Positions 9,017-64,000 of a DNA stretch of 64,000 nt are shown here, one piece after another. Below the pieces are notes generated by a model. That model did no database searches, was not told where the DNA came from, and saw only the letters and a program-made list of their open reading frames with translations. Position numbers and translations under genes: made by a program. Origin of the DNA: Nemertoderma westbladi (lineage: Eukaryota; Animalia; Xenacoelomorpha); contig JAUCBJ010000974.1 in NCBI GenBank assembly GCA_032718475.1, forward strand, positions 1 to 64,000, given 5' to 3'. How positions within the stretch are numbered: the first letter of the stretch is position 1; each line of letters begins with the position of its first letter.

Positions 9017-9028
9017 TAGCCACCCCTC

Positions 9029-15104: not shown

Positions 15105-15105
15105 A

Positions 15106-16829: not shown

Positions 16830-17078
16830 TAACAAAAATCCCCAAAAAAATAAATATTTTGAAAATCTCAAAAAATACTAACTAATAAAAAAAACCATAT
16901 ATCACGTAATGTTCCAGAACATTCACCAATGTCAATAAAGACAACAATAACCACAATAAAATCACAAAGGTTCTTACAAATTATTGCTGTTTACATACTT
17001 TACTAAGACCGGTTATAGGCCTACAGTACATACCGGTACCGGTACTATACTAGAACACAGTGAGCTCTAGCCATAAAA

Positions 17079-31192: not shown

Positions 31193-31739
31193 TCTCTAGC
31201 AACACAGTTCGCTCATCCAACTGCCTTTCCAGTTCCTTTTGATCCAGCGCAACAATGTCTAGTTGACACGCCAGATCTATCTCTAACACCATCTTGCTTT
31301 CGCGGAGGATGTAGCGGACTTATCAGTCGCGACAGACTCCCATCGCCTCTCTGTCCTACTAATTTTCCCCCGTTTGCTGGGGTTCCTACTAACCGACGAC
31401 ACCGAATCATCGGGGTTAACCTCGGATTTGCCGTCGTATGGGTCTGCCCATCCCACTAATTTAATTCCCCTGGCATCCACTAAGTAAGGCCCTACGTACA
31501 CCACGTCGGGCTCCATCACCTCGGACCGCCACAATTCAAATAGTTCTGTGGCGACCCCCTCGCCCTCTCACTCGCTAGTTCTCCCTGTCCAAAACGGACT
31601 AAATAACGAAAATGTTTATTGGACTCACCTAGCCTCTGATATAGTTTAGGCTGGTCTACCTTTCTCCCCTCCTTAGCGTCCTTTAGTATCTTCTTCATGG
31701 TGTTGTACGCCCGTCGCAGGCGATCACTCATCCCGACGT

Positions 31740-37500: not shown

Positions 37501-38538
37501 ATGAACCCAATCGGATCGAAGTAACTACTGAGAATACTTAGGCAGTTGCGCTTTGTCTGCACACGTTCAGGTCTTATTTTCAACTTGAAACACATCTCAT
37601 CTGTTTCTGTTAACCATTTAAGACCCAATGTTTTAGTATCAGGTAACTCGTCCCTAACTAGGTCTAGTTCCTTATTTCCTCTCTCAACAGGGTCAATAGA
37701 TTCGAGGAACTCTCGGCTATTGCTGGTAAAGTACGGTAAATGAAATCCGCCTCTTTTCAGACAGTCAACAGTGCCATGTACAACACTGATGGCCTCTGCA
37801 ACAGTTGGGACCGACTTAAGATTATCATCCATATAAATGCCCCTTTCTATGTTCTCAATGACAGCTGGGGAGAAGTCCTTTCGATTATGATGGGCAGTGG
37901 TTCGTATAATGGACCACGCATTTGAGGGACTCGATTTAATACCAAATGTTTGTATCGCCATGCGATATTCCAGTGGCTCCTTAGACAGATCCCCATCAGG
38001 CCACCATAAGAATCGGAGGCTATTACGATCCTCAACTAAGGATTTCACCTGCAAAAACATCCCTTCTATATCAGAAGCGAAAGCAATTGAATATTGGCGC
38101 AATCTGATTAAAATACCTAACAGTTGTCGCAAGAGGTTTGGGCCTGGCATCAATTCGGTATTGAGTGATTGACCTCGGAATAGTGCTGACCCATCAAAGA
38201 CAACACATACTTGGCCGGGTTTGTCTGTTCTTTCCACATAGAGATGTGTCAAATAATATGTTCGGTCCGTGGTTTCCAGAACATTAGGGACTCTTTCAGC
38301 ATAACCATTGTCGATATATTTATTCCTCTGTGTATTATACATCTGATGAGCCATTGGGTTGGCTTTTAGGCGTTTCTTCAGTTGGGCTGCTCGCTTTACT
38401 GCTAATGTCCTATTATTATGAAACACTGGTTTACCATTCTTCCACAGGAGGCCTATCTCATACCGTCCTTCTTTTGGAAGAGATTTAGTTGTGGATTTTT
38501 GAATATGGATGGCGCGCTCCTCTTGCACAGACAGTGCC
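34568..38538 (-). pseudogene. Element B: decayed BEL/Pao pol (RT-RNase H-integrase) with a 584-bp tandem duplication of its 3' end
   Basis: YMDD RT, LHAFGDAS, YWTDA, NPADIASRG, TGVDLFG, WGGSWERLIR; many stops and frameshifts; ~34568-35150 duplicated at ~35150-35730. Confidence 0.9.
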
Positions 38539-39158
38539 TGTTAGCGTATTCAATTCCGCTAACACCCCACAAAGTAAGCCGTTAAGCAATATTGGGGGCC
38601 ACGAGGTTGGGTAACCAACCACTGTTGCCACCCCAACAAAGTGGGAAGGATAAACACACAATAGGGGTCAGGGGCCACACCCCTGACCGAGAGAGAGTAG
38701 CAGTAGTGAAGGGAAACACTCCAAAGGGCGCCAACAGGGATATTAGCCAATGGGGGGCAGGCACCACCGGCTAGGTACCGCAATAACGGCCAAACCGTGC
38801 AATGTATTTTATTAGGTATCAGTGATTCTTAGTTCAGTTATCTCATTGTGTTTGTCAGTTAGCTAGGGTAGAGCAGAGACTTCTATTACCGTCCTCGCCT
38901 ACCACCATTATCTGTACATACCGTAGTACTTCAATTGTTATCTATCCATTTTATACTATACCCATCTCAACGTTTATATTATACCTTCATACATATTACC
39001 GAACATCAGAACTCTTAACGAACCTTTTCACATACACGGCGGGGACGCGTAGGTAGAAAACTCAAACGGATAAATTGGGATCCGTAGATCCCGTCACAGT
39101 AATAGAACACCAGCTGCTACCCATATAAGCTATCGATCTAAAGACAAACTCCAAAGAG

Positions 39159-42100
39159 ATGACGCCAACACGGACCACGGACGAAGAACTAACGATCCGC
39201 GAGGCCGCGACCAGACGGTATAGGCCCACGACGCCGGACCCATCGGTAACAGGTCATCTGGCAGTTCAAGATGAGGGGGGCCGTCTGGAGCAGGAAGTCG
39301 AGTTGAGAGAAGGAGAGAGCGAGGTGGAAGGAGAAAGAGACGAGTCGACACACGTCGGTCGACGTACCGATGTCGCCGGCCAGCCACAGGCCGAGGGCGA
39401 TGGACGGCCCACCGGAACGGTGACGGTGGGGCCGCCGGTACGACGTCGGACCCGGAGAGATGGAGGAGAGGTCGGCGACGAGGACGTCGGGGTTTCTGAT
39501 CGACTTCGACGGGCCTACAACGCGACCCGGAAGCTACTTAAGGAGGCCAAGGAGGGGGCGAGGATAGATGAGGTAAAGTTGACAACAGGACTAGGTGAGT
39601 CGGATAGACATTTTTGTTATCTAATGCGCTTCGGGCAGAGAGAACTGGCCAAGGAGAGAGCGAGAGGGGTTGCCGAGGAACTGTGTGACTTATGGCGGTG
39701 TAGGGGTATGCAACCTAACGTAGTGTACATAGGGCGATACTTAGTCGATGCCCGGGGTATAAAATCAGTGGGTTGGAGGAGACCTGAGGAGGGCGAATCC
39801 GAGGTTGACCCCGAGGATTCGGTCTCGTCGGTCGGGAGGAATTCCAGTTCCGGGAGGCGGGGGAGAGTTAGTAGATCGGGAAGGTGGAGGGAATCCGTCG
39901 CAACCGATAAATCTGCTACATCCTCCGTAAAAAAAAGACGGGTGAGAGAGATAAACGCCACGTACCATCTCGACCTGATAGCGCAAGGTCAGAGAGAAGT
40001 AAATAGACGGTTAGAGGAGGGGAGAATGCTACTAGATAAGGAAATGGAACTGATTAGAGAAACCGGAGAGAGGGCCGAAAGGGCCGCGAAAAGCCTTAGG
40101 GAGTGTGAGGAAATAGCGAGGAAGGAACAAGAGGAGCGTGAGGCGAGAGAGGAAAGCGAACACAAAGAGCGTGAGGCGGAACGCAAGGAACGTGAGGCGA
40201 GAGAGAAAAGTGAACGCGAGGAGCGTGAGGCGAGAGAGAAAAGTGAACGCAAGGAGCGTGAGGCGAGAGAGGAAAATGAACGCAAAGAGCATGAGGCGGA
40301 ACGCAAGGAGCGTGAGGCGAGGCGAAGGGAGGCAGCTAGGAGAGAGGCGGAATTGGCCGACCAGAACGCACTGGAGGGTCGGGAGAGAATAGCAAGAGAG
40401 ATGCTTGAGCGAAAAGAATTGGAAAAACGCCAAAGTGAGCTTATAGAGTACAAAACTAGATGCATGCGCGAGCTGGAACTGGCGCGGTTAGGGGCGTCTG
40501 AGAGTGGGACTGGCTCGAATATTTTCCAGGAACCAAGGGCCGTGGATACATTTATTAACACCCCACTTACAGGGTCCGCACGACAGACATGAAACTGGTG
40601 TGACCGTACGGGCGGGGGGGGGGGGGGGGGGGGGGGTAATAATAATGCTATATTAGACATCGTTAATATTAATAGTACCATATTGGATAATCCTAACCAA
40701 ACCTTTATTGCAGGAAATACATTACCTAGTAGTAGTAATTTAAATTTAAATCCGAATGATTCTGATGTTAATGTAGGAAATAATTATAATATTAATGTAG
40801 TTACGCAAAATAATCCGAATAATCCAAATAATCTAAATAATAATCTGAATTCGAATTTACAAAATAATTCAAGAAACGCAATTGCGCAAAAGATACCATT
40901 TAGGATGTCGGAGACATCAGGATGCATGTTCGCGGGAACTATGCAGGAAATGGGTGATGAGAGAGCAGAGGAGCAGCTTAAGAGACTGCTCAGACAGGAT
41001 TTTGAAGGATTAAAGGAGATCGGGGTCGGGACCTCGGTGGAAGACAAACAGGCTCAACAAAGCGTGGAGGAGTCTATGAAATGCGATGAGGGGCGGTATA
41101 CCATAGGGATGGTATGGAAGCTACCAAAGCTACCATTGCCCGATAATAAAGGGATGGTGCTCACGAGGCTTCGTAAGTTGAAGCAGACACTAAAACGGAG
41201 CCCCGAGAAGAATGAGTACATCCACAGAACAATTAAGAAGTACGTCGAGAAAGGATGGGCCGTGGAGTTACCGGTCGACGAACCAAACACGGATAGGACG
41301 TATTACCTACCACTCCACGTGGCTTTAGACCCGAAGAAAGGTAAACTGCGGATGGTAGTTGACGCATCGGCAAAGACCAACGGAAAATGCTTAAACGACT
41401 ATCTACTAGAAGGTCCGAACATATACAACTCAGGGATAGAGGTCCTACTTAGATTTAGAAATGGGAAACACGCCTTCACGTGTGACATAGAAGGCATGTT
41501 CAACCAAGTCCGTGTAACGGAGGAAGATAGCGACAGTCAACGCTTCTTATGGTATAACGGCGACGAAGAACCGTCGATAATACCGACGTACAAGATGGTA
41601 GTACAGAACATGGGAGCCAAGTCGTCTTCATTTACGACGACTATGGCAGTAAGAGATACAGTGAAAGGGAAGGAGGATAGATACAGCACTAGGGCCGTCG
41701 ATATGATTCGACGCGGCTTCTACGTAGACGACGGAATGGAGTCTGGAAATACGGTTAAGGAGATACTGGACACAGGGCGCGAGGTTCGCGACATCCTAAA
41801 AGGATCCGGCTTTAACCTGACCAAATTCCAATCCAGTTCGGAGGAATTTATCAAGGCGATAGGGGACGAGAGACCAGAATCGACCATGGATAATCCCACA
41901 ACGGCCAAAGGGCAGGACATGGCGAACAAGAGGACAGAGTCTCAACAGAAGGCACTGGGAATCGTGTGGAACAGAGAGACAGATGAACTGAAGTACCAGC
42001 TGAGCCAGGAGGGCGCAGACATCCACACAAAGAGAGGCTATGTGTCATACATAGCAAGAATATACGATCCCCTAGGTCTAGCATCCCCACTATTAGTCAC

Positions 42101-44361
42101 GGGGAAACAGATACTCAAGAGAGTATACAAACTGAAGGATGAGTGGGACGTAGAGGTACCAGAGGAGATCAAGAAACAGTGGTGTAAGTGGACAGAAGGT
42201 TTGGAGAAGATGGGAACATACAACATGCCGTGAGTGTATTTCCCGGATGGGAACATGACGAATCTGGACTTACACATGTTCTCCGATGCGTCGTTGGAGG
42301 CGTACGGAGCGGCACTCTATTTAGTACAACGAGAGGGGGCTCACAAGCCCAGACTGGCCTTTAGCAAAGCGAAGTCAACGCCGCCAGATTCAGCATCAGT
42401 TCCCAAACTAGAATTGACAGCTGCCAGACTAGGAGTTAGGGCCACAGCCTACCTAGTGGATACTATTCCCAACATAGTGGAGACACACTACTGGACGGAT
42501 TCCATGGTAGTGCTTGGTTGGCTACATAACGAAAGGACGAGATACCCTATATTCGTCGCGAATAGGGTGGACGAAATAAGGGCGACCACAGAATTGGAAA
42601 GGTGGCACTACTGCCCAACGGACGAGAACCCAGCGGACTTGTTATCGAGGGGCTTGGCACGCCACACTTTCTTGAAGAAGGAAGTATTGTGGCAACACGG
42701 GCCACAGTTTCTGAGCAACAAGGAGGCCTGGCCGCAGATGAGAAAGGTGGACCCGGGCTCGGGAGAAGCAGCAGTATCAGAGGGAGAAGAGGGAGATTCA
42801 GAGGGAGAAGAGATATACTCCCAGATGGTGAGGGAGATAAGGGACGTGCAACCTAAACTAGAAGAACTGTGCGATAACCCGATGGATAAACTCCTCAGAT
42901 ACAGCTCTAGTTGGTATAAGACCAGGAAATTAGTGGCGTACTGGAGAGCCTTCGGGAATTTCCTCGCGGGAGTTGGCAAAGGCAAGAAGATCAGGACAAC
43001 CATTGATCTGGAAGGAGCGGCTAAAGCAGTCATCCGCTATGAACAACGGAAGAACTACGGCGACGAGGTGGAACACGTCGGTAAGCAACAGCATCTTCGA
43101 CGGGACAGCGAGTTAATCACGCTGTCACCACAACTTAATGATGACGGGATTCTAGTAATGAACTCTAGGGTGGGCTACAACAACAGCATCGTTGTACCGC
43201 CGAAGCCCATCATCATCCCAACAGGATCTCCAATAGTCCACCAGATTATCTGGGACTCCCACAAGTCGATATTGCACGGGGGCACCAACCGAACCCTTAC
43301 GGAGATACGGAGGACCTTTTGGGTTAAGCAGTTGAGGAAGAAGGTAAAAACGGTAGTGGGGCAGTGCCAGACCTGCCGACGAGCGAAGAAGGAGCGAGCC
43401 ACACAGGAGATGGCACCACTACCGGCGAGTAGGGTAAGACAGCACGACCCGCCATTTACGCATTGCGGGTGGACATGTTCGGGCCGATAAAGATCAAAGT
43501 GTTGCGGCACACGGAGAAACGCTACGGTATTATCTTCGTATGTAACAACATGCGGGCGGTAGAACTCGCCCAAGATGCAACCGCATCAGCATTCATTAAT
43601 GCATTAGAAAGGTTCAGAGACCGTAAAGGTGGGACGATCGCAGTAATGTACTCCGACAGCGGAACCAACTTTGTGGGAGCAGAGAACGAGATGGCAGAGG
43701 CCTTGGACATCTCGGAAGGGGAGGAAGTCAGGGCAGCCATGAGACGACGACAAGTAAAGTGGGAGAGAAGGACGCCGTATGCACCACATACACTAGGATG
43801 AGTCGAGAGACTGGTGGGCAGTTCGAAGCGTCTCATGACGAAGCTAATGTACACCCATATGGTCACAGAAGACGTCTTGAGAACAGTACTTGCGAAGTGT
43901 GAGGGTATCATTAATAGCAGACCGCTATATCCGGAGAATGATGACCCTGAATCACTAGATGTGCTGACGCCCAGCCATTTCCTAATGGAAAGGCCAGCGA
44001 CCATCGATATGCGGGGTGTAGATCCAGATGACATACACTCCCGCCAGAGTTGGAAAGTCGCTAAAGCGATAAGCGCAGAGTATTGGAGGAGGTGGGTTGA
44101 GGAATCCTACCCACGCTTCACAAAAGAAGCAAATGGAGGAAGCCGAATAGGGAGTTAAGAGAGGGAGATCTCGTAATCGTTACGGATGATACTATCATCA
44201 ACAACCAGTGGCGGTTGGCGAGAGTTGTAGGCACCTACTCCGATGAGGACGGAAGAGTCCGATCGGTAGAGGTGCGGATAGGTGGCAAGATAGGTGCGAA
44301 GGACAGAAAAACCTACAGGAGAGCTGTAGGGAAATGCTGTCTACTAGAAGGGGCACCTTAG
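39159..44361 (+). pseudogene. Element C gag-pol, with in-frame stops (40590, 42231, 43799), frameshifts and loss of capsid, knuckles and protease
   Basis: ORFs 39159-40592, 40683-42233 and 42234-43490 share a frame. The Asn-rich gag region runs directly into the pre-RT linker. Confidence 0.88.
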
Positions 44362-44469
44362 AGTGGAGTTAGAGTGTAGTTTAGTCGTCCAAGTCTTGGA
44401 CTGAGGGGGGTGGGATTGAGGGCGAGACGCCCTTCCCACACATAAAAGTAAAAAATAAAATAAATAAAA

Positions 44470-44900
44470 ATTAGAGTTAGTTAGTTAGTTAGGAGTTAGA
44501 AGGAGTTAGAAGGTACGTAGTACCTAGAGTCAGGAAACAGTTAGTTAGTTAGGAGGTACGTAGTACCGTTAGTTAGAGAGTTAGTTAGTTAGGAGGTACG
44601 TAGTACCGTTAGTTAGTAAAGAGAGTTAGTGGAGTTAGAGTAGTTAGGAGGTACGTAGTACCGTTAGTTAGTAAAGAGAGTTAGTGGAGTTAGTAGTAAG
44701 AGGGTACGTAGTACCGTTAGTTAGTGGAGTTAGAGTAGTAAGAGGGTACATAGTACCGTTAGTTAGTGGAGTTAGAGTAGTTAGAGGGTAAGTAGTACCG
44801 TTAGTCAGAGGTATTAGAGTAAGAGTTAGAGGGTACGTAGTACCGCTAGTTAGAGAGAGAGAGAGTAAGAGTTAGAGGGTACGTAGTACCGATTAGTAAT
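44470..44900 (+). repeat. C-poor tandem array with nine GGTACGTAGTACC hairpin units (two variant)
   Basis: Units at 44512, 44555, 44595, 44650, 44703, 44745, 44787, 44832 and 44878, separated by ttag/gag spacers. Confidence 0.9.
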
Positions 44901-44930
44901 AGGGGTAGAAGGGATATGTATAATATGGAT

Positions 44931-46832
44931 TGTTCGAAGAGACAGTAACAAAATACCCTGCAATATCTTACTGTAAAGTTTGTGAATCAAATCATAAATC
45001 CGACCTTCTCACCAAAACAGTAAACTCTAAGTAAGCGAATATATATTGCAGTATCGGTCTCTTATAACCGGTGAGGCAGAAAACAGTCTACGAACAGACA
45101 AACTTCGATAAAACAAAATCCCGCGCAGCGAATCCTAAAATCAGGCTGACTCACTGACGGAGTAAGGGGCTCGTATACTTTGCCGCGGTGTGATTTATAT
45201 GGTTGGGCGAGAAAGATGCTAGCTAGGTGCAGAAAGGTCTAACTAGCGGGCAAAGCACAGTATGGACAAAAATTATTTTATATATTTTGAGGTGTAAATA
45301 ATTTCTAACGCGCGTGTGTCTTGATTCTAAACAGTCAAAAGTCAGTTTTGCTCCTTCATATATATAATTACTGGGTCCGGTGTGCATTTTACAAATATTC
45401 TAATTTTGTAACTTGTAGGTCCAATACTCACGAATGATAAGGCTCCTTCCCCCTTTGTGTATTTCCAGGACTCAAATTCAGGCATAAGGTTAATACTACA
45501 CCCAGAATTCGTCAATTTTAATTTACCAGGTCCCTAATACTAAGAAGAAATGTGTTAGTTTACTACAGTAGGCGTACAGTTACTAATAGCTAGCCTGGTG
45601 TTCTTATCTAGAATTTTGGCTGCCTAGATGTGCACGGCAACTTCCTAACAGAATGTTGGCGGGGAGACGGTAGATGTTAGTATCCCTAAATAGCCTCAAT
45701 TTATTTGCGCCTAGTTGTAAACTGCCCTACCGCCTGAACGGTACAATCCCAATTCAGGTAAAACACAGTAACTCTTCTGGCCTACAAGTTCTAATGCAAT
45801 GGACACCGTTGTACTACAAACAGTCACAGACGCACCTGTACTTAGCAAGAGTTAGGCGTACAGTTTGCTGCACCCTACCAATGTGTATGCCTTGTACCGG
45901 TGTGCCTGCGTCCTATCTGTGTACTAGTATCTCTGCCTGCTCTCCCCCCGTAGGAATATGAAGGTCTACTGTGGGTTTTTTCTCTGAATTAAGACAGTAC
46001 GGTCCCTAGATGTAATTTTTAGCACACAGCGTGTCACTACCTCTACCTTCGATCTTTGGTCTTATACTTAGGTAGCAAGGCATTGAACGCTGTCTAACCT
46101 TTCAGGCGATGGGCGAATAACTCAAGAGTGATATTGTGGGTTGTCTCCTTCTACATTCCTCAGATGTTCTCGTTCATCGCTGTGGCCCGATGTCTAGCCT
46201 GCCATCCTGTCCCTCAGTTAGGTTCACCGTGGTAAAACATGATAAAAAAAAAGGGCAGATGTAACAAGTATTTCTAACTTTATTACAGAATATATACGTA
46301 AATGTAACAAGAAACTAATAGATAACTAATAAAGATTAGGATAAGCAAGAATGATTGATACACTAAGAGTGAGAGATTATTAACTAATGAACGAAATCGC
46401 ACCTTTTATAGCAAATTTGTGCTGCAATCAATCGAGAAAATTCTCGATTGTTCTATGAGTTCTAATAGGTTTTTAAAGATAACTATTGGTCCAGCGAATA
46501 TATAACTTGCACGACATTGGTTACTATCTAATAACTGCAATCCCATTGGTTAATCTACTTCGAGCAAATGCAATTTAATTTGTAGTGGTTAATTTAAATG
46601 AGTTGAAACTCTGCACAAAAAATAATTCGCACCTACTAGGATTCGAACTCAATACCTACTACATATAATTTCCAACGCTTTACCGACTGAGCTACTGAAC
46701 CACTTGAATAATCATCGTACAAATAGATATAGTAAATACAAATGAGGACTTAATGTAATCTTTATAGCAAAGTTAATTCGAACAAAATAAAATTTTCAAA
46801 ATCCACGGCATTTATGAGAATATAATTCTATA
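44931..46832 (-). repeat. Element D 3' LTR (1,902 bp)
   Basis: Matches 61713-63609. Minus-strand ends are TATAG...TCGAACA; preceded by TGGAGCGG. Confidence 0.95.
46629..46701 (-). ncRNA. tRNA-like Pol III cassette in the LTR (3' LTR copy)
   Basis: GGTTCAGTAGCTCAGTCGGTAAAGCG...GAGTTCGAATCC: A box and B box followed by T6. Acceptor and anticodon stems do not pair well. Confidence 0.6.
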
Positions 46833-47733
46833 CCGCTCCATGAAAACAGGATATTATCGTGCATAAAATATACGGTTTTCACCAATACTAATCAAATTAT
46901 GGAATACTTGGGACGTACTTACATATTTATAAATTAAATCTCAACAATAATACCTCTACATAATAATTCGATACAAAAATAATTACAAATTCAAACTTTA
47001 CGTATTTAAGGCTTTATTAAGTAAGTACAATATAAATCTAAATTAAATTCACCAAAATAAATCTATTGCATCTCAAATATTGCATAAATTCAAACAATCA
47101 CAAATACTAATACTACTTAGATATAAAACAAATTACATAAGTTCGGAATAAATCACAAGAAAGGCTCACAAGTCTTCCGTCTGCTCTTGCCTTCTATTTA
47201 ATGTAAATACAAATACTGCTTCTTTATAAAAGATAAATTGCATACTATTCGAAACAATAAATTGCGTAAGTTTGGAATGACTACAAATATAGCACTTTCT
47301 AAATATAAATCTTTACTAAATTGCATAAGTTTAGAATAATATTGCATAAGTTTAGAATAATACTGCATAAGTTTAGAATAATATAAACTCTTTTGCATCT
47401 CAAATATGAAATATAAATCTTTCAAATATAGATTCCTTCTAAATATAAAACTTTCTAAATTTCAAAATTGGAACAATACAAATACATAAGTTTAGAACAA
47501 TGTAAATTGCATAAATTTAGAATAATATAAATTGCATAAATTTAGAACAATATAAATTGCATAAATTTAGAGCAATATAAATTTTAAACAATACAAATTA
47601 CATAAACAATTCAATTTACATAAACAATTTGATTTACCTAAACAATGCATAAAACAATACATAAAACAATACATAAAACAAACAATTCATAAGAAAGGCT
47701 CACGAGTCTTCCGTCCACTCCTTCCTTCCCGCT

Positions 47734-50700
47734 TTAACGCTTAGCGGATCGAGCCCTGCCGCGTCCTCGAAAACTGCGTATCGGTGATTTAGCTCGTGAT
47801 ATGGGACTTGTGGGGCGAGCCACTGGTTTACTTTGGACGTTGGGAGATGGTACGACCATTTCCTCACATATTCGTCTCTTAGTTATCCCAAATCCTCGTC
47901 CAATCCCTCGTGACCGATCTGTTGTATCTACCGCTGGTAAAACGTCTGGGAACGCGCGAGAAGCGGACGACGCAGACCCAAGAGAAGCTTGCGCCCCCTT
48001 TTGATCAGCTGGTATATGTCCCGATCCTCCTTGCGGTTCTCTGGGAAGCGAAACCGTATCCCGAGTAATTTGAATAGTCGGTTCGTATCCCCTTCGTTCT
48101 TCAACATTGATAGTTTTCTTTAATTGTTGGCCCACTTTCTGAACCCTTATGATCCTGTGCTGTCCGTCCTCCCGAGGGTGACGTGCAGACGGCGCGACCG
48201 GAGTAGCTGGCACGTTGGTCGCCTTTAGGACCTCCTCTTCCTCGAATACGCTCGCTCGTATACGTTTATGGTAGAACGAGGCTCGGTACGCCCATGCGAC
48301 GGTTAACCAAGCTCCCTTATTTCGCTTTTCCGTTCGGAAACGATCAAATTCACCATATGTGATACGATTGACTACTTTCTGGAAGTTCCATGTATTCTTA
48401 TTGTCCGGGTGAATCTGTAACAAGTATTCGCGCACAACTCGAAATCCACTATCGTGAGGCAAATATCAACTACCTCGATTAGTTCGTCATATTGTGGCAT
48501 AGCGGAGATATATCCTTCCGACTGTGCTCTCATCGGGAATCGTCTTCTTTGTGCCGATACATGTTCGTCAGCTAAATCTTCCCAATCATCAAACAGTTTT
48601 CTCACGAGTTTTACAGATTCGTGTTCGTAAGGTATGTCTCGCAATTGACATTCAGATGCTCGATGTCCCTTTATATTGCAATATGTGCATTGAGCCATAA
48701 ATCTCCAGCAAGTATAAAATGTATGGGACCCTTGATCTCCACACCATCCACAGATTAGTTGAGTTGTAGTAATGTGCTTTCCACTGCACTTTGTCGAATG
48801 ATGTCCAGCGACGCCACATTTACCACACATCGTATTAGCAGGGTACCACACTCGCTCATATATAAGATCGCCAATGGGTCGAGCGCTTCCTCCCACACTA
48901 TAGTCATAATCGTCTGGGTCGATAGGTTGGTATGTTTCATAAGGTTGTATGCAAACTACAGCATCTGTTGCTTCTAGTTGTCGAATCTCCGTCTGAGATT
49001 TCTTCGGGAGGTTCCTTTCAATCTCAAGAAATTCCTCTAAAGGATCATCGATGGCCGTCGTTACTTCGAAATCATCACCTAAGTGACCGATAGGCGCACG
49101 CGTCTGCCGTGATTCGTCCGTAAGCTCCACGATACGTTCTCCTTCATAGGGTAACAATGTAAACATAGATGGTCTTTCGATAAGAGATCCCGCACAGCGA
49201 AGATACACGTCTCGAAATATACTAAATCCTGCTCGAGTGAAGGCATTACACTGAGCGTCGGAATTGTAGAAGGGTTCGAGAAACCGTCTAAACACATCGG
49301 TATGAATTCTCCCTTCCGCGTAGAATGTATGATCTTCTCCGAGGCAAAGTGGATGTCATTTAAGAGTCCGAGACACAATGTCGGCGACTAAGCAAACATT
49401 CACTGATGACTCTATCGCTAAATAATATTGTAGTACCGCTCTTGGAGGTGAAGTAATAGCCCAATATACGCATCCTCTCCATTTGAGCTGTGATTCAAAC
49501 TCATTTATATCTGGAGTATCACCTTCTCCATACGTTTCGATATACTTTGTTCTTTTACTTTCCTTGTAATCCCAATTAAACATCAAGTAGGAAATGTATC
49601 CAGTTCCGGTTTTCTGAGTATCATACTCACGGAAGTATCCTTGTTCTATAGACCACAGTATAAGAGGTCGAGTGTCGACGTAAGGTGTCGGTAATCGGTC
49701 GTCACTGTCCGACATGCCGGCGAAGTCGCTAATTAAGTCCTCTCTTACTCCTGATCCAATCTTTACAACAGTTTTATCTAAAATCATATTTCTCACCATC
49801 TTCGGTAACATTCTAGCATCGATATTGCAAGCCTGGTCCATTTTCTTTACTATATTAGTGATGAAATGGTGCCGCTTGGTAGTTCCTGGAGGTATAAGGC
49901 ATTCGCTTGTCGCTCCTTTATCTACTGAAAACGTGCAAAACTCCGTCTGCCGCTCTAATTTGTATAGTCTTGGAGGTTAGACTCTGCTGATGGCTGCCGC
50001 CCTCGTTATCATAAAACATGTAACCGTTTTCCTGAAACGATCTAAACGTCCTATTCCATTCGTCCAATAATTCTTCCGAAGGTTGCCAAATCTTCTCTAT
50101 GTCTTTCTCGTCCTCGAAACGAATGACTTTACCTTGCCAGTCCGCAGCGATATCTGTATCCGACTCAAAGGTTCCTGTTCCAATCCATAAGCTAATTGTT
50201 TTGGTTAAATATCCTTTCAGGTTACTCGGAGCTATATCAGCGCCAGCTCTATCCAGTTCCCTAAAGTCTTGAATATGAGGCGGAACATTATGCACGACCT
50301 TTTGCGTAATATGTCTACGTAAATCATATATCTTAACCATATCGCTTAGAACAACTGCAGGAAGAAACTCTAAGTTCGAAATGATTTCCGGATGATCCAC
50401 AATAGGTATTTCATACGTTGTATCTTGTCGAACTGGTATACTAATAGGGAAATTGAGTGTCGTACTCAATGGTTTCGTAGTTGAAGTACTATACGGTTGC
50501 ATTTCTCTTGTACTTTCCGGGGATGCAATCTGTAGTCTCTGAATAACGTTTTGAGCAAAATTTATACTCTCGAAAACTTCCGGTGTCATCTCCTTAGCTG
50601 AAGTTTGATCGTGTGACGTCCAATGGTAAGGTAGGCTCGCAAGTCTTCCGCCCCATTCTTCCATCTTACCTTTCTCGAAAGCCTTGTAGGCTCTGTATAG

Positions 50701-51225
50701 GCTAAGAGCTTCTTTCTTTTCGCGGGTTGACTGAGTCGCCTCGTCCAGCGTAAGTTCGAATACATCGGGTTCAACAACCTTAGGTGGGTAAACAACAATT
50801 TCTCCCGCCTTTGGTGCAGTCATAGCGAATGAATGATATGGATTCGATAAAGGATACCCTCCTTCCTGGTAGCGTAGTTGTTGATGGTTCGAACACCTCG
50901 CCAATATCGGTTCGGGATTTTCCTTATTCAAACGCATCGGAATCGCATTTCGTTGTTCGTGCATACAAGCACCGCATTGATAATAAAGTTTATAAACTGA
51001 AAATGCTTCCTTTGTTTCTCTATCGTCCCCTCGAGTTCGTCTGTAAAGATGCATTCCATCGAATTCATCGCGTACCGCGGGCATAGGTTCGTGCGCCTTC
51101 AGGTATTGCATAGTATGATACAAACGACTAATTTCGGTATCGGGATCTTCGCTAATATCTCCCGTATCACATAAATCGGCTCTCCTTGTATCCCCTTCGC
51201 CATTATTAGAGGTATGGTTACATGA
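47734..51225 (-). pseudogene. Element D ORF3 (~1,100-1,160 aa reconstructed): DEDDy 3'-5' exonuclease-like domain, 3 CCHC knuckles, Arg/Ser-rich tail
   Basis: ExoI FYDNEG..TIQIRAADGVLHVF (~50016-49930); ExoII LPKMVRNMILDKTVVKIGSGVREDL...YVDT; ExoIII-like YLAIE; knuckles CGKCGVAGHHSTKC, CGWCGDQGSHTFYTC, CTYCNIKGHRASEC. Frameshifts at ~49930 and ~48465; TGA at 49356. Confidence 0.72.
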
Positions 51226-53869
51226 TCATACTACTAGAGGGAATACAACAGAGTTTATTGTTAGTTGTGAGGAGATGTGAGAGTTTTCGTCTGCCCTTTT
51301 GGCTCGACAACGCTCTAACCTCCTACCCATAGCCTAAGATCTAGGGTTTCTTTAATGACACGCTGCTTCTTATCTAAAATTTTTGCCGAAATAAAAACGA
51401 ATTTGGGCTAAACTGGCTGTGAGTCTAAAATACTCACCTTTTGATCCCAAACTATTATCAGAAAATAAGCAATCAAGAATTAGTAATAAATATAGGGAAG
51501 TCTATTATTCGACGTAACTTATTGAAACAAGACCGTGTAAAATTTAATTAAAATTTAGAAAGGCTCGCGAGTCTTCCTTTTTCTTGTTTCTCTAATTTTA
51601 AGTTCCACCCGACTGTACCCTGAAATCTATTCACTGGAGAAAATTTTAAAATTTTTCAAATCCAAATGGATTGTCTAAAATTTCGAAAATGTCTCAATAT
51701 TGTGAGTTCCAAGTAGAATTCCATTTCTTATACCTACAAATCCCGCTCCTATGTGACACATAAGGGTACTACCCTCAATGTTCACATATAAAGACAATGG
51801 AATTCTACCGCTGTCTTTACTACGGTGTACAGGTACGTGGAAATCTATTTGTAAACTCCTTACTATTTACTAACATTTGTTGGAGACTTGTAATCTCCAG
51901 ACTTGTTTCGCGTCTCTTCAAGAAGTACGAGACGTTGAGTCGGTCTGTCTACTGTACGACCGTCAATTGTCCGTACAGTCACGGTTCTTGTCACTCCATC
52001 CATAGATGGATGTGTGTCTAAAATTACACCTGTTATCCAGAAGCGTCTTTTTAGATTCACTTCTGCCAACAGCACGTGATCTCCCGCTCTTAAAGTGCGA
52101 GTTTTGTTGTACCAGGTTGTTCTGGCAGAAATAGAGGGCAAATAATGATTTTGCCATATTTCCCAGAATTTGTTAGCTAATAGTTGCATGATTTTCCACG
52201 CTTTTCTACGGTAGCTATCGCATTCTATTGGAATAGAAATAGGCATTAATGTAGTCGGTGCCTGCATAAGCAGGTGTGCTGGTGTTAAAGCAAACTGGGA
52301 TTGTTTGTTATCGGGTACTAATACTATTGGTCTAGTATTTATTATTGCCTCGATTTCAACAAACAATGTTGTCAGTTGGTCGTCTGTCAAGATGTGGTTT
52401 ACTGGAATTACTTTTGCCATGGCTGTTTTTATAGATCTAATCAATCTCTCCCAGACTCCGCCTCTCCATGGACTATCTGGAGGATTAAACTTCCAAACAA
52501 TCTTGTAAGGACGTAGTTCGTTTGAGATTTGATCATGATCTAATTTCTTAAAGGCTCTAGCAATTTCATTTCGAGCACCAACAAAGTTTGTACCTTGGTC
52601 TGAGTACAAGCATTTTACTAGTCCGCGTCTAGCGATAAATCGCCGCAATGCTAGTATAAAAGCGTTGGTGGAAAGATCCATCACACGTTCAATATGAACT
52701 GCCCTACTGGACATGCATGTGAAAATCAGTCCCCAGCGTTTTACTATTATACGTACACGTTTCGTATGTATGGGACCAAAGCAGTCAATTCCAGTCTCTG
52801 TGAAGGGTGGTCTGAATGCCTGTAGTCGTGCTTGTGGAAGTTCACTCATTTCTTGGGTACTTATTCTAGAATGTACCTTCTTACAAATAATACACATACG
52901 CGTCACTGAACTTAACGCTTTACTGGGTCTAATTAATACAAATCTTGTACGTAAGTATGAAAGACAGTGGTGTCTTCCAGCGTGTTTCAGATGTAAATGT
53001 GCATCCAGTATCATTGCACGTTGTAATTCGTGATGTTGCGGTATTATTATTGGGTACCTAAAATCAGTATTAAAGTCAATGTTTTGAAGCCGAGATTTAT
53101 GACAAATTAAGCCATTATAAATTATCGGACTCCAACTCAATATTGGTGACGACTTGATTGGTTGACCTTGACTTATAGATGTGAATTCGCGTGCGAAATA
53201 TCGCAATTGGTAATGGCGAATTAATTTAATTTCACATCTGTCAATCTCAGTCAATGTGAGTCGACGTGTAAAGTCGCGTTTGCCTTTAACGTATTGTACA
53301 AAACGTACAATCCACGCTAATTTTCGGCACGCGTTGGTCCAAGAATCTGTCAAATTTACAATACGGTCGACGTAAGTATTTGTGACGTCATCAGGTAAGT
53401 CAATGGGGAATTTGGAAGGTTTTGTTTTACTAGATGGGCCCACGAGTCCGCCGGTAGGTATTCCCTTGTTGACTGTTGATCCGTCCGGGTCTACAAGTAA
53501 TTTGTCCTTCTTCGTCTTCTTACCTTGATTGTCAGTACTTTGTGTGTCGATCCCTAATGGTGGTTTTAACTCTATGGGATCACTGGGTTTCGGTAAATTT
53601 ATTTTTGTGCCGATATTAATCCCAGGTTTCACCGTAGGTTGTAAGGTTGGTATGTCTCTTGAGCGTAAAGTAACACCTGTATTTACATTAGCGTAGGTAC
53701 TACCCACATCTGTAATACATGAGGTTTCACTGTACTTATGGTTACTCAAGGGTGTCAAGTTTGGTAGTTTGTCAATAGAAGGCCGCTCCAATAGGGAAAC
53801 TGCGGCTTTACTATGTGTTGCTATGTTACTAATGTCTGGTAGAACATCTTGTGAAATGTCTGATAAAAT

Positions 53870-54035
53870 GTTTCGCGGAACATCCGGCGAAACGTCTAGT
53901 GACATGTCTGGCAAAATGTCTGGTTGACCGTCTGGTAACATGTCTGGTTGACCGTCTGGCGATACGTCTGGTTGACCGTCTGGCGATACGTCTGGTAACA
54001 TGTCTGGTTGACCGTCTGGCGATACGTCTGGTTGA
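53870..54035 (-). repeat. 12/24-bp coding repeats (QPDVSPDG) in a long RNase H-integrase linker
   Basis: cgtctggttgaccgtctggcgata repeats. Confidence 0.85.
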
Positions 54036-57000
54036 GAAAGGCTCGCAAGTCTTCCTGCCCTAACTTTGTGAGTTATATTCTTCCATTTCGCCTTTGGTTT
54101 CTTCTTAAGTTTCGCCGTTGTCTTTTTCTTTGCTTTACCTTTCTTTGGTTTTTTAATTTCGGCGTCCTTAGGAATAGTATTAGACTTGTTATCGTATAGT
54201 GGCGGCCAATGTTGTGTTGCTCTTTGTAAGAATTGTGGTCCGTGTTGCCAAAATTTCTTGTTTTCCGGTTTACAGAATTCCTCAGGCATCATTCCTCGCG
54301 ACGCAATATCAGCTGGATTTTGTGGTCCGGGACAATGTCGCCAATCTTCCTTTATTGAACGGTCTAGAATTTCTGCACGATGGTTAGCTACGAATGTCTT
54401 GAATTCAAGTGTGTCGTTGTTTATATAAAATAAAACTAACGTCGCGTCAGTCCAATAAAATATCTGTAAACTTGACTGTAATTCAGTCTGTATGAGGTTT
54501 ACAATTGTCGTTGACAGAGTTGCGGCTTGTAGCTCAGCGCGTGGTGTCGTCATATACTTAGTAGGCATTGTTTTAGCCTTAGAAGTAATGAGCGATACAT
54601 CAAACTCATCTGAGTCTACTTGTCTGCGCAAATACGCTGTCACTCCAAAGCCGTTGTCACTGGCGTCGGAAAAACAATGTAATTCTAAGTTGTCAGGAAA
54701 TGTCGTCTGTAATGGAAAGTACACCCGGGGTATGGAATAATCCTCTAGCGAAGATAATTGCGCCTCCCAAGTCTTCCATAAGTCCACTTGTTCGTTTGAG
54801 ATCGGTCCGTCCCATGTCAGTCCATCTTTCCAAATACTGCGCATATATATTCTTGCTTGCAGTATTATTGGGCTGATGAAACCTAATGGATCGAACAGTC
54901 TGCTTAGTTTCGACAAGCAAGACCTCTTTGTCAGAGAATCCCCTTCAGCGTCCAGTTTTACTTTCACTCAAAAGTTGTCTGTGTTCGGGTCCCAAAATAG
55001 TCCCAACACCTTGGTCGTCGGCAGTGGTTCGAACTCTAAGTCAATGTCCCCACCCCCACGTTCAGTCGTTTCGAATGAATTTACTAATTCGGCGCTGTTT
55101 GAGGCAAACTTAGTGAGGTTAAAACCTCCGCCTGCTAAACAGTCCCGTAATTGATGTGCTACTGTTATAGCACGTTCTACTGTGTCACAACTTTGTAATC
55201 CATCGTCTACATAAAAGTCTCGTTCTACGATCTCGATTACCTCTGGGTCATACATATGTTTCTGATCCCTAGCGGTCTGTTTTAGGGCGTACATAGTGCA
55301 GTTTGGGCTGTCTCTGGCACCGAAAACGCGAACTTGCATTTGGTAAGTCGCCGGTGGTTGACTTAAGTCTCCATCCGGGTACCAGAGGAACCTCAAACTG
55401 TCTCTGTCTCGCTCTAACGCTCGCACTTGGTGAAACATCGCTTCGACGTCACAAGTAAATGCTACTTGGCGCTGACGGAAGCGCATAATCACCCCCATGA
55501 GATAATTATTCATGTTTGGTCCGTCCATCAACTCACTGTTGAGAGACATTCCTTCAAACAGGGCCGCGCAGTCGTTAACTACGCGTACTTTATCAGGTTT
55601 GTCGGGGTGTCTCACGTAGTGATGTGGCAAATAGTATGTCTGGTCTGTCACAATCTCTGGGTTAGTCATTTTGATAGCGTATCCTTTTGTTAAATACGTC
55701 TCCATCTGGGTATTATACTGCAGATGGGCTTTCTCGTCCTTTAATAAACGTTGTCGTATTGAGTGTAAACGTCTTAAGGCTAGCGGATAGTTATTGATAA
55801 GTTTAGGGCTTTGGCTACGCCATAGCATCCCTACCTCATAATGTCCGTCTTTCGTCTGGCGGATAGTATCTTCCATGATCTTCAAAGATTGTTTCTCTTG
55901 TTCCGACATACACGGTTCATAACTACCTGGTTCGGCTGTATCTTGTTCCAACCACCTGATAGTTTTCTCTGTTAATTCCTTGTCTAGTGCGGCTTGTTCT
56001 ACTTGACAGTTCCTTAATGCGTCGTCATCGATATCGACGGGCATCGTTAATGTTATTGGTGTAGATAGACTCGCAAGCCTTCCGGCGTTATCATCTGTCG
56101 TCGATGGAACCTCTGCCTGACTCCGCTTCTTCTCAATCTCTATACTAACCTTGTGGATTGGCTGCTCTTTGTGACTTATCGTATTTGCTACACACGTCGT
56201 ACCTGTAACATTGTCGTGTTTTGTCGAACGTAGTGTAGTATAGTCTATGTCAGGTGAAAAGGAATGAATCGAAGTTGTAGTTAGTAAACTACATGTACTT
56301 TGTACATCGTCTTCCTCATCACTTATATCCAGTGTGCGCACAGGCGCTCGAGTATACCACCCTATCGGAGTTCTACAGGCGTAAGCGTTTCCCGCTACGA
56401 CTACCGATGGTCTGGTTTCCCACACTTGATGTAAGTTGAATTGGTCCGTCCCGATCAGCATTGCTACCGACCGATAATTAACAGGACATTCGGGTACACC
56501 AAGGTGTCTGAAATACTTACGGTCCTCTAAGGATTGCTCCGGCACTGGACCCAGTAGATTACTAAAGTCCTTTGTGGCCGCAAAAGTTAAATCCTTAAAG
56601 GGTAACAAAGACCTCTCCTTTTCGCTATGTTGCGATTTCGGAAGAAGAGTGTCCAAGTTTAACTTAACTCGTGTCACTGGTATTGCACGTTGTCCATGCA
56701 TACTACTTACAGTGTACTTCACGTGCTTACCTTGTCTAAGGTCCGTCACGACATCAGCTACTTTCTCATGCACGTAGCTGTGAGATGAGGCTGAATCTAG
56801 GATAGCGTAGATCCTTTTGCTCCCTTTTGTGCCAGTAATCTTAATAGGAATTACGCTGAAACCTTTTAGTTGATCAGGCGTCAGAAGAGCGATCGATGGT
56901 TGTTCGTCTCCCTCCGAGTATATGTCGTCGTCTTCAGATTCTTCACCAGAAGACCCGGATTGTTCTGGGAAGCAATCCCAAATATGTGTCACAAACGTTG

Positions 57001-58547
57001 GTGTTGTTCTTGATTCTCGTGTTGTGTAGACAGTGTTACATTTCGCTACGGCTTCCGGGTGTTCCCTAGTGAAGCGTTTTGTCGGCGTATGGCTGTCTGT
57101 GTGGAGCAGACCATCATGGTTGCGTCCACAGTAAGGACAGGTGTCCGTATTTGGGCAATCCTTGCGGACATGTCCATGTTGTGTACACCTCCAACAAGAA
57201 TCTAACGGTCTTATTTGAAGCCGTCGTTCCTCTGAGTTTAATTCACGAAACAGATGACATCTCCTCAGCTGGTGATTGGTATACCGCTTATTAAGCCGCT
57301 CGCAGTATTGGCAACCGCTAAAGTCGGCATTCAGTTGTTGCCTGGTCTGTTTGATGCCAATAGGTGCGGACAGTTTACTACCGTTAGGAAATTGTCTTGT
57401 TTCTGTTGGTGTGGCGTAAGTGGCCGTCCTTGTGGATGTCGTCGGTTGTTTTTGTCGGTTTGATGAAGGTAAGGTGATTCCTTCTGCTACGATGTGTTGG
57501 TCAGTGTAGTTAGATCGAGTCTCTACTACTGCTTCCCTGGATATTAATAGGTACACATCCTCCAGTTTCAAGAATCCACCTCTTTCCTCCCGCTGGTATT
57601 CGATTTTTCGCCACTCCCGACGAAGTCGATGATGTAGTCTTCCTATAATTTTTAATAGGACTGTGGGAGTGTTCCCATAATCGAGTTGTCCAATAGATGT
57701 TAATGTAGTGATAGCGTTTTTAATTTCGTCAGCTAATTTAAGTAAGTCGACGGGTTTTGTAATAGCCCCCCCCTTACAGAGTTCCTCTATCACTGACTTG
57801 GCCATACTAACCGTACCTCCGTAGATTGAAGTTAAGCGATCGTATGCTAACTCGAAGGCATCTGGTACACCGACAAAGGTCTCTGCCAAACGTTTGGGTT
57901 CTCCCGATAATGTTTGAAGCAGGTAATTAAACTTCTCCCTTGATGTAAAGGCGCACACAGCGATCTGAGATTCAATGTAGTCTACGAAAGTGTGCCAATG
58001 TTTGGAGCTACCGGAAAACTTAGGTGGTTGTTGCACCGGTAGTCCTTGTCTAGCTGCGAATTTAGCTATTTCCTCGGCAACGTTCAAAGTTCCGCGTCCT
58101 GGGTTGGCAATCTGGCTGATGTTCTCTCTTCTAGGCTCTTTTCTTTGATACGATGTGTTTCTCGACGGTATTGGTCTTTGCGGAACTTTAGGATTTCTAT
58201 TGTGTTCGAATTCGGAATTTCTCGAACTGTCGGTGTGAACTTCCTCCAAGCGTTAGTCGATCTGGGCCAACTTGTTGACAACTGGTCTCAGAATGTCGGC
58301 AAATTGTTGGGTACTGATCGCGTCCGTTGGTTGTAACGCCCTTTGTATTGGTGTATTTTGTGGAGGATTATCGATAAATGAATTATCTGAACGCTCACAT
58401 TTACATTCGTCGGCCGCTCCTGTTCTAAATACCTCGCGTTCCGGGTAATCCGACTCGCTTGAAGTACTACTGTCACCTGGATACAGTGGTCGACGTGCTC
58501 GTGTCCGTTGCGTCGTTCGAATTTTAACATTCCGTTTCGGAACATCG

Positions 58548-59035
58548 TCCACTGTTCTCCGTTGTTCGGTAGGCTCACAAGTCTTCCTCGAAGTCGTAGA
58601 TTGCGATGTAAACTGATTAAACGGTCGCGTGTCCACTGTTCTCCGTTGTTCGGTAGGCTCACAAGTCTTCCTCGAAGTCTTAGATTGCGATGTAAACTGA
58701 TTAAACGGTCGCGTGTCCACTGTTCTCCGTTGTTCGGTAGGCTCACAAGTCTTCCTCGAAGTCGTAGATTGCGATGTAAACTGATTAAACGGTCGCGTGT
58801 CCACTGTTCTCCGTTGTTCGGTAGGCTCACAAGTCTTCCTCGAAGTCGTAGATTGCGATGTAAACTGATTAAACGGTCGCGTGTCCACTGTTCTCCGTTG
58901 TTCGGTAGGCTCACAAGTCTTCCTCGAAGTCATAGATTGCGATGTAAACTGATTAAACGGTCGCGTGTCCACTGTTCTCCGTTGTTCGGTAGGCTCACAA
59001 GTCTTCCTCGAAGTCGTAGATTGCGATGTAAACTG
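58548..59035 (-). repeat. 84-bp coding tandem repeat (28 aa, ~5.8 copies) in gag
   Basis: Near-identical units FTSQSTTSRKTCEPTEQRRTVDTRPFNQ with period 84 (58570...58990). Confidence 0.97.
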
Positions 59036-61712
59036 AACCGGTGGTCGAGTGACAGCGTTTGAATCTAAAGGCCTTGTAGGCCTAAACGTCTTTGGGTACG
59101 TGTAGTGCGTAACGGGTTTTGGTGTCGAAGGTGGACTCACCTGTTTTGTCGTTAGTAGTGCAGGTCCGGTCAATAAACTACTACGATCGGTAATCGGTGG
59201 GTTACTTACCTGGACTTTCAGAATAGGCGACGACGTTGCTCTTGGCGGTATGAACTTGTCCGGAATAACAAACCTGTGTTCCGTCGCACCATGGATAGGA
59301 GAAATATTACTACTACCCGCAATCGAAACAGGTTCCTTAGTCGTAACTGGTGCAAACATAGGAGTTACTTGAGGGAATCTTTGACATAAGTCTTTAACTA
59401 ATTGTCTTTCTCGCCCAGGTGCCCCTACACTTCCTTCCTTCATTCGTTCCTGAATTTGGCGGTGCCTTACCTCTATCTGGTCCAAATCATGTCCGTCACG
59501 AGATCTCATCAATCGATCGCGGGCTAGAAGATCCAGATTTTCCTTGGTTTTGGCTAGTTCTCTCGCCTTCCTTTCGAGTTCGAAATGAAGTTTAACTTCT
59601 TTCTCGCGTTGTTCCGTCTGTTGTTGTTGCGCCTCGAACTCCGCTTGTCGTATAGCTGATTGAGCCTTTATTTGTCGTTTTTTCAACTCGGCTCAGGCTT
59701 CCGAAACTCGCCTTTGTTCGTCCAACTCTGCTGCTCGTCGCTCTAAATCAGCTGCTGCTGCTCGTCGCTCTAAATCAGCTGCTGCTGCTCGTCGCTCCAA
59801 CTCAGCTGCTGTCGCTCGTCGCTCCAACTCAGCTGCTGTCGCTTGTCGTTCCAACTCAGCTGCTGCTGCTTGTTGCGCTAACTCAGCTGCCGCTGTTCGC
59901 TGTACTATTTCTAACTCCAACCTTTCCATCTCAGCCACTTCCAACTCGGCTTGTTCTTGCAGATGAGAGATTCTCGCAACATTTGCAACGCGTAGTTTTT
60001 CTTCCTCTACCGCCGCTTGTACCGTTAACAGTTGAGTTTGTTCCTCAATTTCTCGTTGTTGTCTATAGTGCTGTTGTTGCTGTCTAGAAATTTCTGACGT
60101 CACTATACTTACCTCGCCAATTTCGCTGCGAATACTCACTAACGATTGGTCCAGTATTCCCGGTGCCGATTCGATTTGTACGGGTGAAGTTCCCCTCGTA
60201 TATTCCGGCACGGTTTCCAAATCGCCGACGTCTTCGCCGCACATACGTAAGTGATCCGTCAGATGTTTCAATTGTCCATCCAGTCGGTACAGTTCCTGTT
60301 CTTCCTCGGGCTGTAATAACTCGTCGGAAACCGACTCACCTAGCAACTGGTCCGCTTGTTCCTGTTGTATCTGTCTAACGGTCGTCTTAAACTGAATCAG
60401 TTTCTCTCTAGCGATCATTAATTTCTCGAGGATTCTAAACTGTGTGTCCATATCCTGTCTCTGTCTAGCTAGATCTTGTAGACCAATTAGATTATCTACA
60501 GACTTATGTACTTTACTCTGTACTCTAACCTGTAGGGTGTAGAACTCGAACCGAGACATCGGAGCGGTCAACTCGTCTAATATGCGTTGGCCTTCTCCAA
60601 TACTCCTGGTAATATGCGCCATGTATCCTCCGACGCTTCTAACCACACTTTCCTGGCTTCCTACTGAACTTACCATGTCCGTTTCTCTATGTCTAGGTTG
60701 CGGGACCGTTAGAAAATCCTCGGTCCTGCCGTCGCCTCGTACTACGGCATCCGGTACTCCCGTTGGATGTACTGGTGACGCGCACGGTGTAGGTTCGGTA
60801 GGCTCACGAGTCTTCCCCTGTGGTTCTTCCGCTTCTGACTTATCCGCGTTACATGAGTCATAGTCGGTTTGTGTATTCTTCGTATAGTCTTGTTTGTCAC
60901 TCATTTCGGTAGTTGTAAGTCAAGTAAAGTGAGTGTCAAAATATCAAACTTACCGTATTTTATTTCTAAACGGTATTAATTACAGTCATATAAAATTAGC
61001 CTACCGGCTGATTTTATAGCAGATGGATAAAATTAGCCTAGCGGCCAATTTTACAGCAAATAAACGTCACGGAATAAGTATATAATAAAATTAGCCTAGC
61101 GGCCAGTTTTATAACAAATAAATCGGATAACGATATGCGTTATCAAAAGGTAAATTAAATACAATAATACGGACTAATTCAGCAATAAACAAAGAAATCG
61201 TACGGAATGCATAAATACTTGAGACAGTGGAACCCACAATAATTTTAACTAATACGGTAATGCCTAACTTATTTATGCAACTTTTCGAACTCACCCCCTC
61301 CAATCATTCTCCAGAAAAACAGATTCCCAGATACAAACCGGACGTGAACCTTTCCGTTTCCAGCGTTGCGGACGAAGTGCGATTTTCCCAACCAAAGTTG
61401 TTGAGTTATCTATCTCCCAAACTTGCTAAACACGGTCTTGCTCTCGTTACAGTCTAGAAATGAGCTCTGAATCCTGAAAAACAAAAGAGTTAGGTTTTAC
61501 TTTTACGAAAATTTTGTACCGGTACAATATGGTATTTAAACCCTTTTAAACACCGGTATTCAATTCCAAATATTTTACACGCGGTTCAGATCAAATTTTA
61601 TTTCAAAAAATTAGCACTTAGCTAATCAAATATAAACTTTTACCTCAAAATACAAAATTTTTCAAATAACTTTAGTCCTACCGAACCGTAGTTCAGTAAA
61701 ACATATTCCTAC

Positions 61713-63609: not shown

Positions 63610-64000
63610 TGGATATTAGTTAGCAGTCAGTAGCGAGAGGGGGGCATATGAGTACAGTTGGATAGATCGTGTAGGCCACGCGACATATACTGCTGTACTG
63701 CACAGGCCCATAGAATAGGTCAGAATGTGGATTATGAAATAGAATAATCCATAAACAGTAAATAGTAGAAATAGATCAAAATAAAATAGAATAAGAATAG
63801 GGCTAAAATTTTAACAAATTATAGTAACAGTAGGAAAGAAATTCTGGAATACAATAAAAGTAACTGACAAAACTGCAAATTAGGGTACATCTAATAGCTT
63901 CAAAATTAAGTAGTAGGGATTTAGGCTATAAGGCGAAATTAGACAAGGAATAGGCCATTATCGGACCGTACAGACCATCCTAGCGGCATCACTCACTTAT

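Follow-up and report, generated by a model that had tools for sequence, protein, structure and literature searches.

The 64,000-nucleotide (nt) stretch of Nemertoderma westbladi DNA analysed here (contig JAUCBJ010000974.1, hereafter the window) carries on its minus strand an 18.7-kb BEL/Pao retrotransposon, spanning ~44931-63609, with an accessory open reading frame (ORF) between pol and the 3' long terminal repeat (LTR). The 5' LTR (61715-63609, minus strand) and the 3' LTR (44931-46832, minus strand) are 99.05% identical over 1,900 nt, with 13 mismatches and 3 gap openings, and one 5-bp target-site duplication, TGGAT, bounds the whole element (44926-44930 on the left, 63610-63614 on the right), so that an LTR pair and a short duplication are present as in other BEL/Pao elements. 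The insertion site is the LTR-like end of another BEL element. Gag-pol forms one reading frame on the minus strand (51863-60919), with in-frame stops at 59693, 58253 and 54968 and no frameshift across 9 kb. Pfam searches on it returned DUF1759 (E 2.7e-11), Peptidase_A17 (E 2.2e-42) and DUF5641 (E 5e-21), which we take to be markers of BEL/Pao elements, in the order Gag (DUF1759 and knuckles) followed by Pol with the Pao peptidase A17 region and the DUF5641 integrase end. Both LTRs open with TA instead of TG (46832 and 63609); the 3' LTR ends in CA, an end that the 5' LTR lacks at 61700-61715, and no clear TGG primer-binding site follows there. The polyprotein is lengthened by in-frame tandem arrays, which in gag have units of 84 nt and 27 nt (58463-59062 and 59701-59916) and, in the part separating RNase H from integrase, units of 12 nt (53843-54035).

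Between the pol stop (51863) and the 3' LTR, the sequence-only reading of this DNA had joined ORF pieces across two frameshifts and one TGA into a product of ~1,100+ amino acids. Four minus-strand pieces are indeed found there (51225-49918, 49976-49356, 49355-48372 and 48465-47734), totalling ~1,153 amino acids, and both frameshifts were recovered; the single TGA, on the other hand, was an undercount, as this copy has two in-frame stops and two frameshifts besides a disturbed start. Part 1 (49898-51225, minus strand, as are the three other parts) encodes ~370 amino acids of no known family followed by the predicted Exo I residues (D 50010, E 50004) and a QI strand, and the ORF frames and the other copies place in it an in-frame stop at 49918-49920 and a frameshift near 49897. 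Since this frameshift lies ~20 nt downstream of the stop, the stop is a separate in-frame break. Part 2 (49359-49895) holds the predicted Exo II (D 49739) and Exo III (Y 49424, E 49412) and closes at the TGA at 49356-49358. Part 3 (48461-49355) encodes an acidic linker and three CCHC zinc knuckles recognised as sequence motifs (48827-48786 with x4 spacing, 48752-48708 with x5 and 48689-48648 with x4) and runs to the frameshift near 48460, after which part 4 (47734-48459) supplies a basic low-complexity tail with an RS/RG-rich end.

All the motifs named in the earlier reading are present, namely FYDNEG (50016), the QI strand as TIQI (49968), LPKM (49808), KIGSGVRED (49763) and the Y-x3-E motif YLAIE (49424), together with two x4 knuckles, one x5 knuckle and the tail it had quoted. 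In the Pfam search it had proposed, zf-CCHC scored 15.5 bits on the accessory ORF, under the cut-off of 20.8. The TGA at 49356-49358 coincides exactly with the predicted end of the exonuclease domain, its next base being C. Another set of residues, C-x2-C-x-H ... C-x2-H, lies in the N-terminal part of the ORF (50976-50880, minus strand) and may bind zinc. The likely start ATG (51201-51203, minus strand) is out of frame with the first piece in this copy, its context being kept in other copies; because of this, and because the other copies differ over 51176-51230, around the ATG (51203), a fifth lesion near the start is likely here.

Upstream of the accessory ORF, an intron is predicted at 51234-51437 on the minus strand (GTGAGT donor, CTAAC branch-like site, pyrimidine tract and AG acceptor), which would fit a separate spliced message for this ORF. 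Hydropathy was examined as the Kyte-Doolittle mean over 19 residues: it peaks at 1.39 across all the pieces, no membrane segment is evident and Pfam gave no glycoprotein match. As no 19-residue mean exceeds 1.39, the accessory ORF is not an envelope gene, as had been proposed from the letters, and env identity was rejected for want of a membrane segment. Its product is likely intracellular.

The ORF is part of the BEL/Pao element and family-wide, although broken in this copy, as supported by read contigs from four public runs covering three samples and three studies. The region from integrase to LTR was covered in 30/30 bins in 4/4 runs, a 1,887-nt contig covers 49474-51175 with 137 differences and one gap, and the junction between spacer and ORF is joined by contigs of two runs; no one contig crosses the whole stretch and, therefore, linkage rests on tiling. 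Around the ORF, the longest inverted match is 12 nt and no termini of its own were found, and its codon-position GC is similar to that of pol. A separate inserted transposon was consequently rejected, there being no termini and the region occurring family-wide in continuity with the spacer. Of the outcomes that the earlier reading had set against itself, absence of the region from other family copies and separate insertion were not encountered.

The same contigs show how far the lesions extend. The stop at 49918-49920 is replaced in all depth in 4/4 runs, the frameshift near 49897 is missing in 3/3 runs from all bridging contigs among those listed, and in three runs 100%, 81% and 34% of the bridging depth is free of the frameshift near 48460; the frameshifts are not general in the family. 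Read-through at the TGA at 49356-49358 is possible, if this stop is common to the other copies. Some copies have lost internal stretches of the accessory region, as at a joint in one run that leaves out 48307-51260; such joints mean that gene-less copies exist. Each of the three samples contains the family in abundance.

Differences between copies were then classed for coding effect at 51 ORF sites, drawn from the rows listed (40 of 517 and 40 of 262) after exclusion of rows outside the ORF, one stop-codon row, one frameshift row and one row upstream of the ATG. Among these listed differences, 30/51 fall at third codon positions (p 1.7e-4) and 32/51 are synonymous, compared with ~29% under neutrality, and the two wrong frames give synonymous counts of 7/51 and 14/51. 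Chance ORFs were rejected, the bias being confined to the proposed frames. By part, synonymous changes make up 9/12 in piece 1, 14/21 in the knuckle piece and 10/12 in the exonuclease stretch, whose range overlaps that of piece 1. Three points temper this result: the tail shows no bias (4/12 synonymous), the integrase control of 8 sites shows none either (2 third-position, 3 synonymous), and the 51 sites were picked by the tool from several hundred differences. Given the unbiased control and this selection of rows, the synonymous bias is to be taken as good evidence of coding constraint and not as a dN/dS estimate. From the synonymous excess it follows, with high confidence, that the accessory ORF would be a selected gene of the family.

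The sequence-only reading had treated the motif set as an established DEDDy exonuclease fold of the WRN/EXD1/EXD2/Mut-7/Egalitarian kind. The assignment held as very probable for a WRN/EXD-type fold, while the word established did not, no PF01612 match having been obtained in Pfam. Remote homology is indicated by two methods. In the ESM Atlas, PF01612 clusters account for 25/30 matches of the part-2 piece (top score 0.93, recognition 2,756). In hhalign, an EXD-like profile built from 78 bacterial proteins, retrieved via a short Exo III pattern, aligned with the same piece at a score of 29.5 (E 3.4e-4, 75 columns, from the LP motif via Exo II to the K after the gL helix), compared with a maximum of 22.4 among shuffles, 0/100 of which scored as high. 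A gapped profile with self-chosen penalties gave z 4.5 and 0/300 shuffles. The catalytic residues are predicted to be D 50010, E 50004, D 49739, Y 49424 and E 49412 (D-E-D-E plus Y), with Exo I and Exo III placed by eye outside the significant hhalign alignment and with E rather than D as the Exo III acid, as seen in one copy. The order and look of Exo I, the QI strand, LP..l..ll.D..v.KvG, the Exo II D, vD and the Exo III Y resemble the PF01612 domain of WRN, EXD2, Mut-7 and Egalitarian, whereas the accessory ORF differs from it in several respects: its identity to the EXD-like profile is 15%, it has long insertions and an E at Exo III, and its likeness falls under Pfam detection.

A number of results speak against this assignment. 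The top Atlas match has 169 features in common, slightly below the 170 mark, the hhalign probability is 38%, the Exo I part alone lies within shuffles (8/100 in hhalign), and in hmmsearch with the EXD-like profile part 2 ranked second of 627 window pieces (E 0.17), after an unrelated piece. Pfam gave no PF01612 on the four pieces (E up to 1) or on two domain read-throughs (E up to 10), PHROGs and NCBIfam matched no exonuclease family in the accessory ORF, PDB sequence searches returned chance matches only, and a plasmid tblastn search with the accessory protein returned no match. Protein searches for relatives found none among 272 and 5,593 candidates (0/272 and 0/5,593) or among 1.84 billion representatives, and 66 pattern matches in metagenome contigs yielded 0 confirmed. 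On novelty, these blanks weigh little because the searched collections are mostly microbial. A single-sequence model of part 2 reached a predicted local distance difference test (pLDDT) of 31, too low to be of use.

The element also repeats a 17-nt motif, GGAAGACTYGYGAGCCT, for which 13 matches at <=2 mismatches were found in the window, compared with a chance mean of 0.07. All 13 are on the minus (element sense) strand and inside the element, with 0 in the other 45 kb. A pattern search places one copy in the 3' untranslated region (UTR; 47162-47178, minus strand), six fall within the gag array at 59007-58587, and the remaining ones start at 47712, 50649, 51577, 54055, 56083 and 60816; a copy with 3 mismatches, below the 2-mismatch limit, starts at 49108 on the same strand. 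With the gag array counted once and the 49108 copy included, nine sites result, which are distributed over gag, pol, the accessory ORF and the two spacers and differ in reading frame. As the motif is read in different frames and also occurs in spacers, the constraint acts on nucleic acid. Its translations in the different frames include the peptides GRLASL, RKTCEP and GKTREP. Several copies sit at the edges of tandem-repeat expansions (the gag 84-nt array, the pol 12-nt array and the AT-rich 3' UTR).

As to structure, 82% of stem cells can pair in a model hairpin of 8 pairs that has an A-C mismatch and a loop of the form YGYG; variation in the stem comprises G-C/G-U switches and a single double change. 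Each variant of the motif has a core complementary to itself, with 85.6% pairing at slide -2, and the CG pairs of this core show nine changes, all C to T, with G-U pairing preserved. An Rfam search of 44000-64000 gave 0 matches. The motif is a real repeated signal, with the stem-loop as its candidate structure.

From the functions generally known for such domains, an exonuclease fold joined to three CCHC knuckles and an RS/RG tail would be suited to holding RNA. The reading that we favour, tentatively and at somewhat less than an even chance, is that this third gene of the BEL/Pao family encodes a trans-acting factor that binds and processes RNA of its own element, the motif being the candidate binding site. 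The protein would be expressed from the predicted spliced message; its DEDDy fold, three knuckles and basic tail would bind the element's RNA, possibly at the repeated stem-loop-like motif, and the bound RNA would be helped in processing, protection or delivery. Action in trans on the element RNA would resemble that of Egalitarian or CERV, discussed below. RNA processing, silencing suppression and transport, the three roles put forward in the earlier reading, are indistinguishable at the level of sequence. A more specific form, in which the family has made its own Egalitarian- or Rev-like system, with the protein recognising a nine-site stem-loop in the 17-kb RNA and this recognition steering export, localisation or escape from silencing, is unlikely.

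Part of the evidence pulls the other way. Protein and motif are connected only by lying in the same element. The motif hairpin is weak, with a predicted -4 to -7 kcal/mol, and is not always the lowest-energy fold, and its covariation was matched by shuffles in 53 and 56 of 500. Moreover, the Egalitarian signals in the available part of 10.1101/2025.08.03.668247 measure 40-65 nt, far longer than the 17-nt motif.

The nearest precedent, which the sequence-only reading had rightly named, is found in rotifers. In the portion of Rodriguez et al. 2017 at hand (PMC5408684), DEDDy ORF3s with a DEED motif are described in Juno, Vesta and Terminons, an account repeated in the available part of PMC6431247. 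According to the former source, as far as its accessible text goes, the ORF3 of Juno/Vesta and Athena/Terminon resembles the accessory ORF in being a DEDDy ORF at the env position, with no membrane segment and thought to be expressed from a spliced message. The carriers there are Juno/Vesta and Penelope-like elements with DEED, as opposed to BEL/Pao with a predicted D-E-D-E here, the two being compared by description from that partial text (PMC5408684); the DEED motif of the rotifer-type DEDDy ORF3 clade is accordingly absent from the predicted set. Unlike the rotifer ORF3 as described in those excerpts, the present protein has ~1,150 amino acids, an N-terminal region of no known family, three knuckles and a basic tail.

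Two further systems bear on binding and on action in trans. In Drosophila, according to the part of 10.1101/2025.08.03.668247 available, the Egalitarian DEDDy domain binds bulged stem-loops, the I-factor signal included, and its catalytic residues are dispensable; the likeness thus lies in a DEDDy domain used for reading bulged RNA stem-loops, one of them from a retrotransposon. Egalitarian is, however, a host gene and dynein adaptor with no zinc knuckles in that portion of the source, while the accessory protein is element-encoded and its binding is putative. In C. elegans, CERV, made from a spliced Cer1 mRNA, exports the genomic RNA (PMC10309623, partial text); it is likewise an LTR-element accessory protein from a spliced message that acts on the genomic RNA of its element. 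No exonuclease domain is described for CERV in the accessible sections of PMC10309623 and its role is experimental, whereas the role of the accessory protein is inferred, the comparison being by description.

Extra ORFs beside gag-pol within the BEL/Pao lineage itself, as given in the available part of PMC13524379, are fusogen-like, namely the Drosophila Roo F-like protein and mosquito chuvirus-like glycoproteins. These env-like products have the retrotransposon lineage and the position of an extra ORF in common with the accessory ORF, but are membrane glycoproteins, in contrast to its hydropathy of <=1.39 (PMC13524379, same portion). No exonuclease ORF was found for BEL/Pao elements in the literature searched, subscription journals and Repbase notes lying outside that search. 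The architecture, a DEDDy-like domain with three knuckles and a basic tail in a BEL/Pao element, was not found described there and may be new, the kind of gene being already known. Retrotransposon DEDDy accessory genes were previously described from bdelloid rotifers. A selected BEL/Pao version joined to RNA-gripping knuckles suggests that this fold has been captured again, by another LTR lineage, and a strand-specific motif repeated through the element offers a candidate target in the search for what DEDDy ORFs do.

Other explanations were weighed against a trans-acting RNA-binding or RNA-processing factor. An active 3'-5' exonuclease directed against host silencing, in which small RNAs or precursors of these are held by the knuckles and trimmed at the DEDDy site, with the motif unrelated, is conceivable but doubtful. 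All four predicted catalytic positions are occupied by acidic residues and the tyrosine is in place, the exonuclease stretch has the strongest synonymous bias (10/12 of its listed differences), the abundance of the family in three samples agrees with such a function, and a mut-7-like silencing role was raised for the rotifer DEDDy ORF3s in the available text of PMC5408684. The Exo III acid, on the other hand, is E instead of D in this copy, and Egalitarian retains all five residues but acts as a binder, as stated in the part of 10.1101/2025.08.03.668247 at hand.

The protein could also be a replication helper inside the particle, a WRN-like 3'-5' exonuclease trimming or proofreading RNA or cDNA ends while an unusually long genome of ~17 kb is reverse-transcribed; the knuckles would serve as another nucleocapsid, and RNA copies would pair with one another at the self-complementary motif. 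This seems rather improbable. Self-complementarity of the core in every variant, changes in CG pairs that keep G-U pairing and a spacing of 0.5-3 kb between motif sites would suit such pairing, and 3'-end processing was the first role proposed in the accessible portion of PMC5408684. Most BEL elements, two others in the window included, nevertheless replicate without such a gene, and the RS/RG tail and separate predicted message would better suit a nuclear regulator.

That the coding gene is real with its exonuclease likeness arising by chance, or is a piece of host sequence carried along passively and of no use to the element, accords with the blank curated-profile and homologue searches, the pLDDT of 31 and the 2-3 frameshifts in the 3.5 kb accessory ORF against none in the 9 kb of gag-pol, but is the hardest to sustain and decidedly unlikely, as two different methods give one family with its motifs in the right order, the listed inter-copy differences are biased to synonymous sites and the frameshifts are not general in the family.

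Elsewhere in the window, three further BEL/Pao-like elements lie at 8373-15405, 34565-38540 and 39129-44900. It was the last of these whose LTR-like end, rich in repeats, took up the accessory-ORF-bearing insertion; like the 8373-15405 element, it has no ORF between integrase and LTR. A 649-amino-acid non-LTR reverse-transcriptase ORF occupies 29263-31212 on the minus strand, with an inverted partial copy at 19780-20349, and a 687-amino-acid transposase-like ORF lies at 24358-26421, also on the minus strand. On the plus strand, 17064-19513 holds two ORFs for a cysteine-rich repeat protein that looks secreted and is probably the product of a host gene; an element of ~880 bp with terminal inverted repeats adjoins them at 15952-16830.

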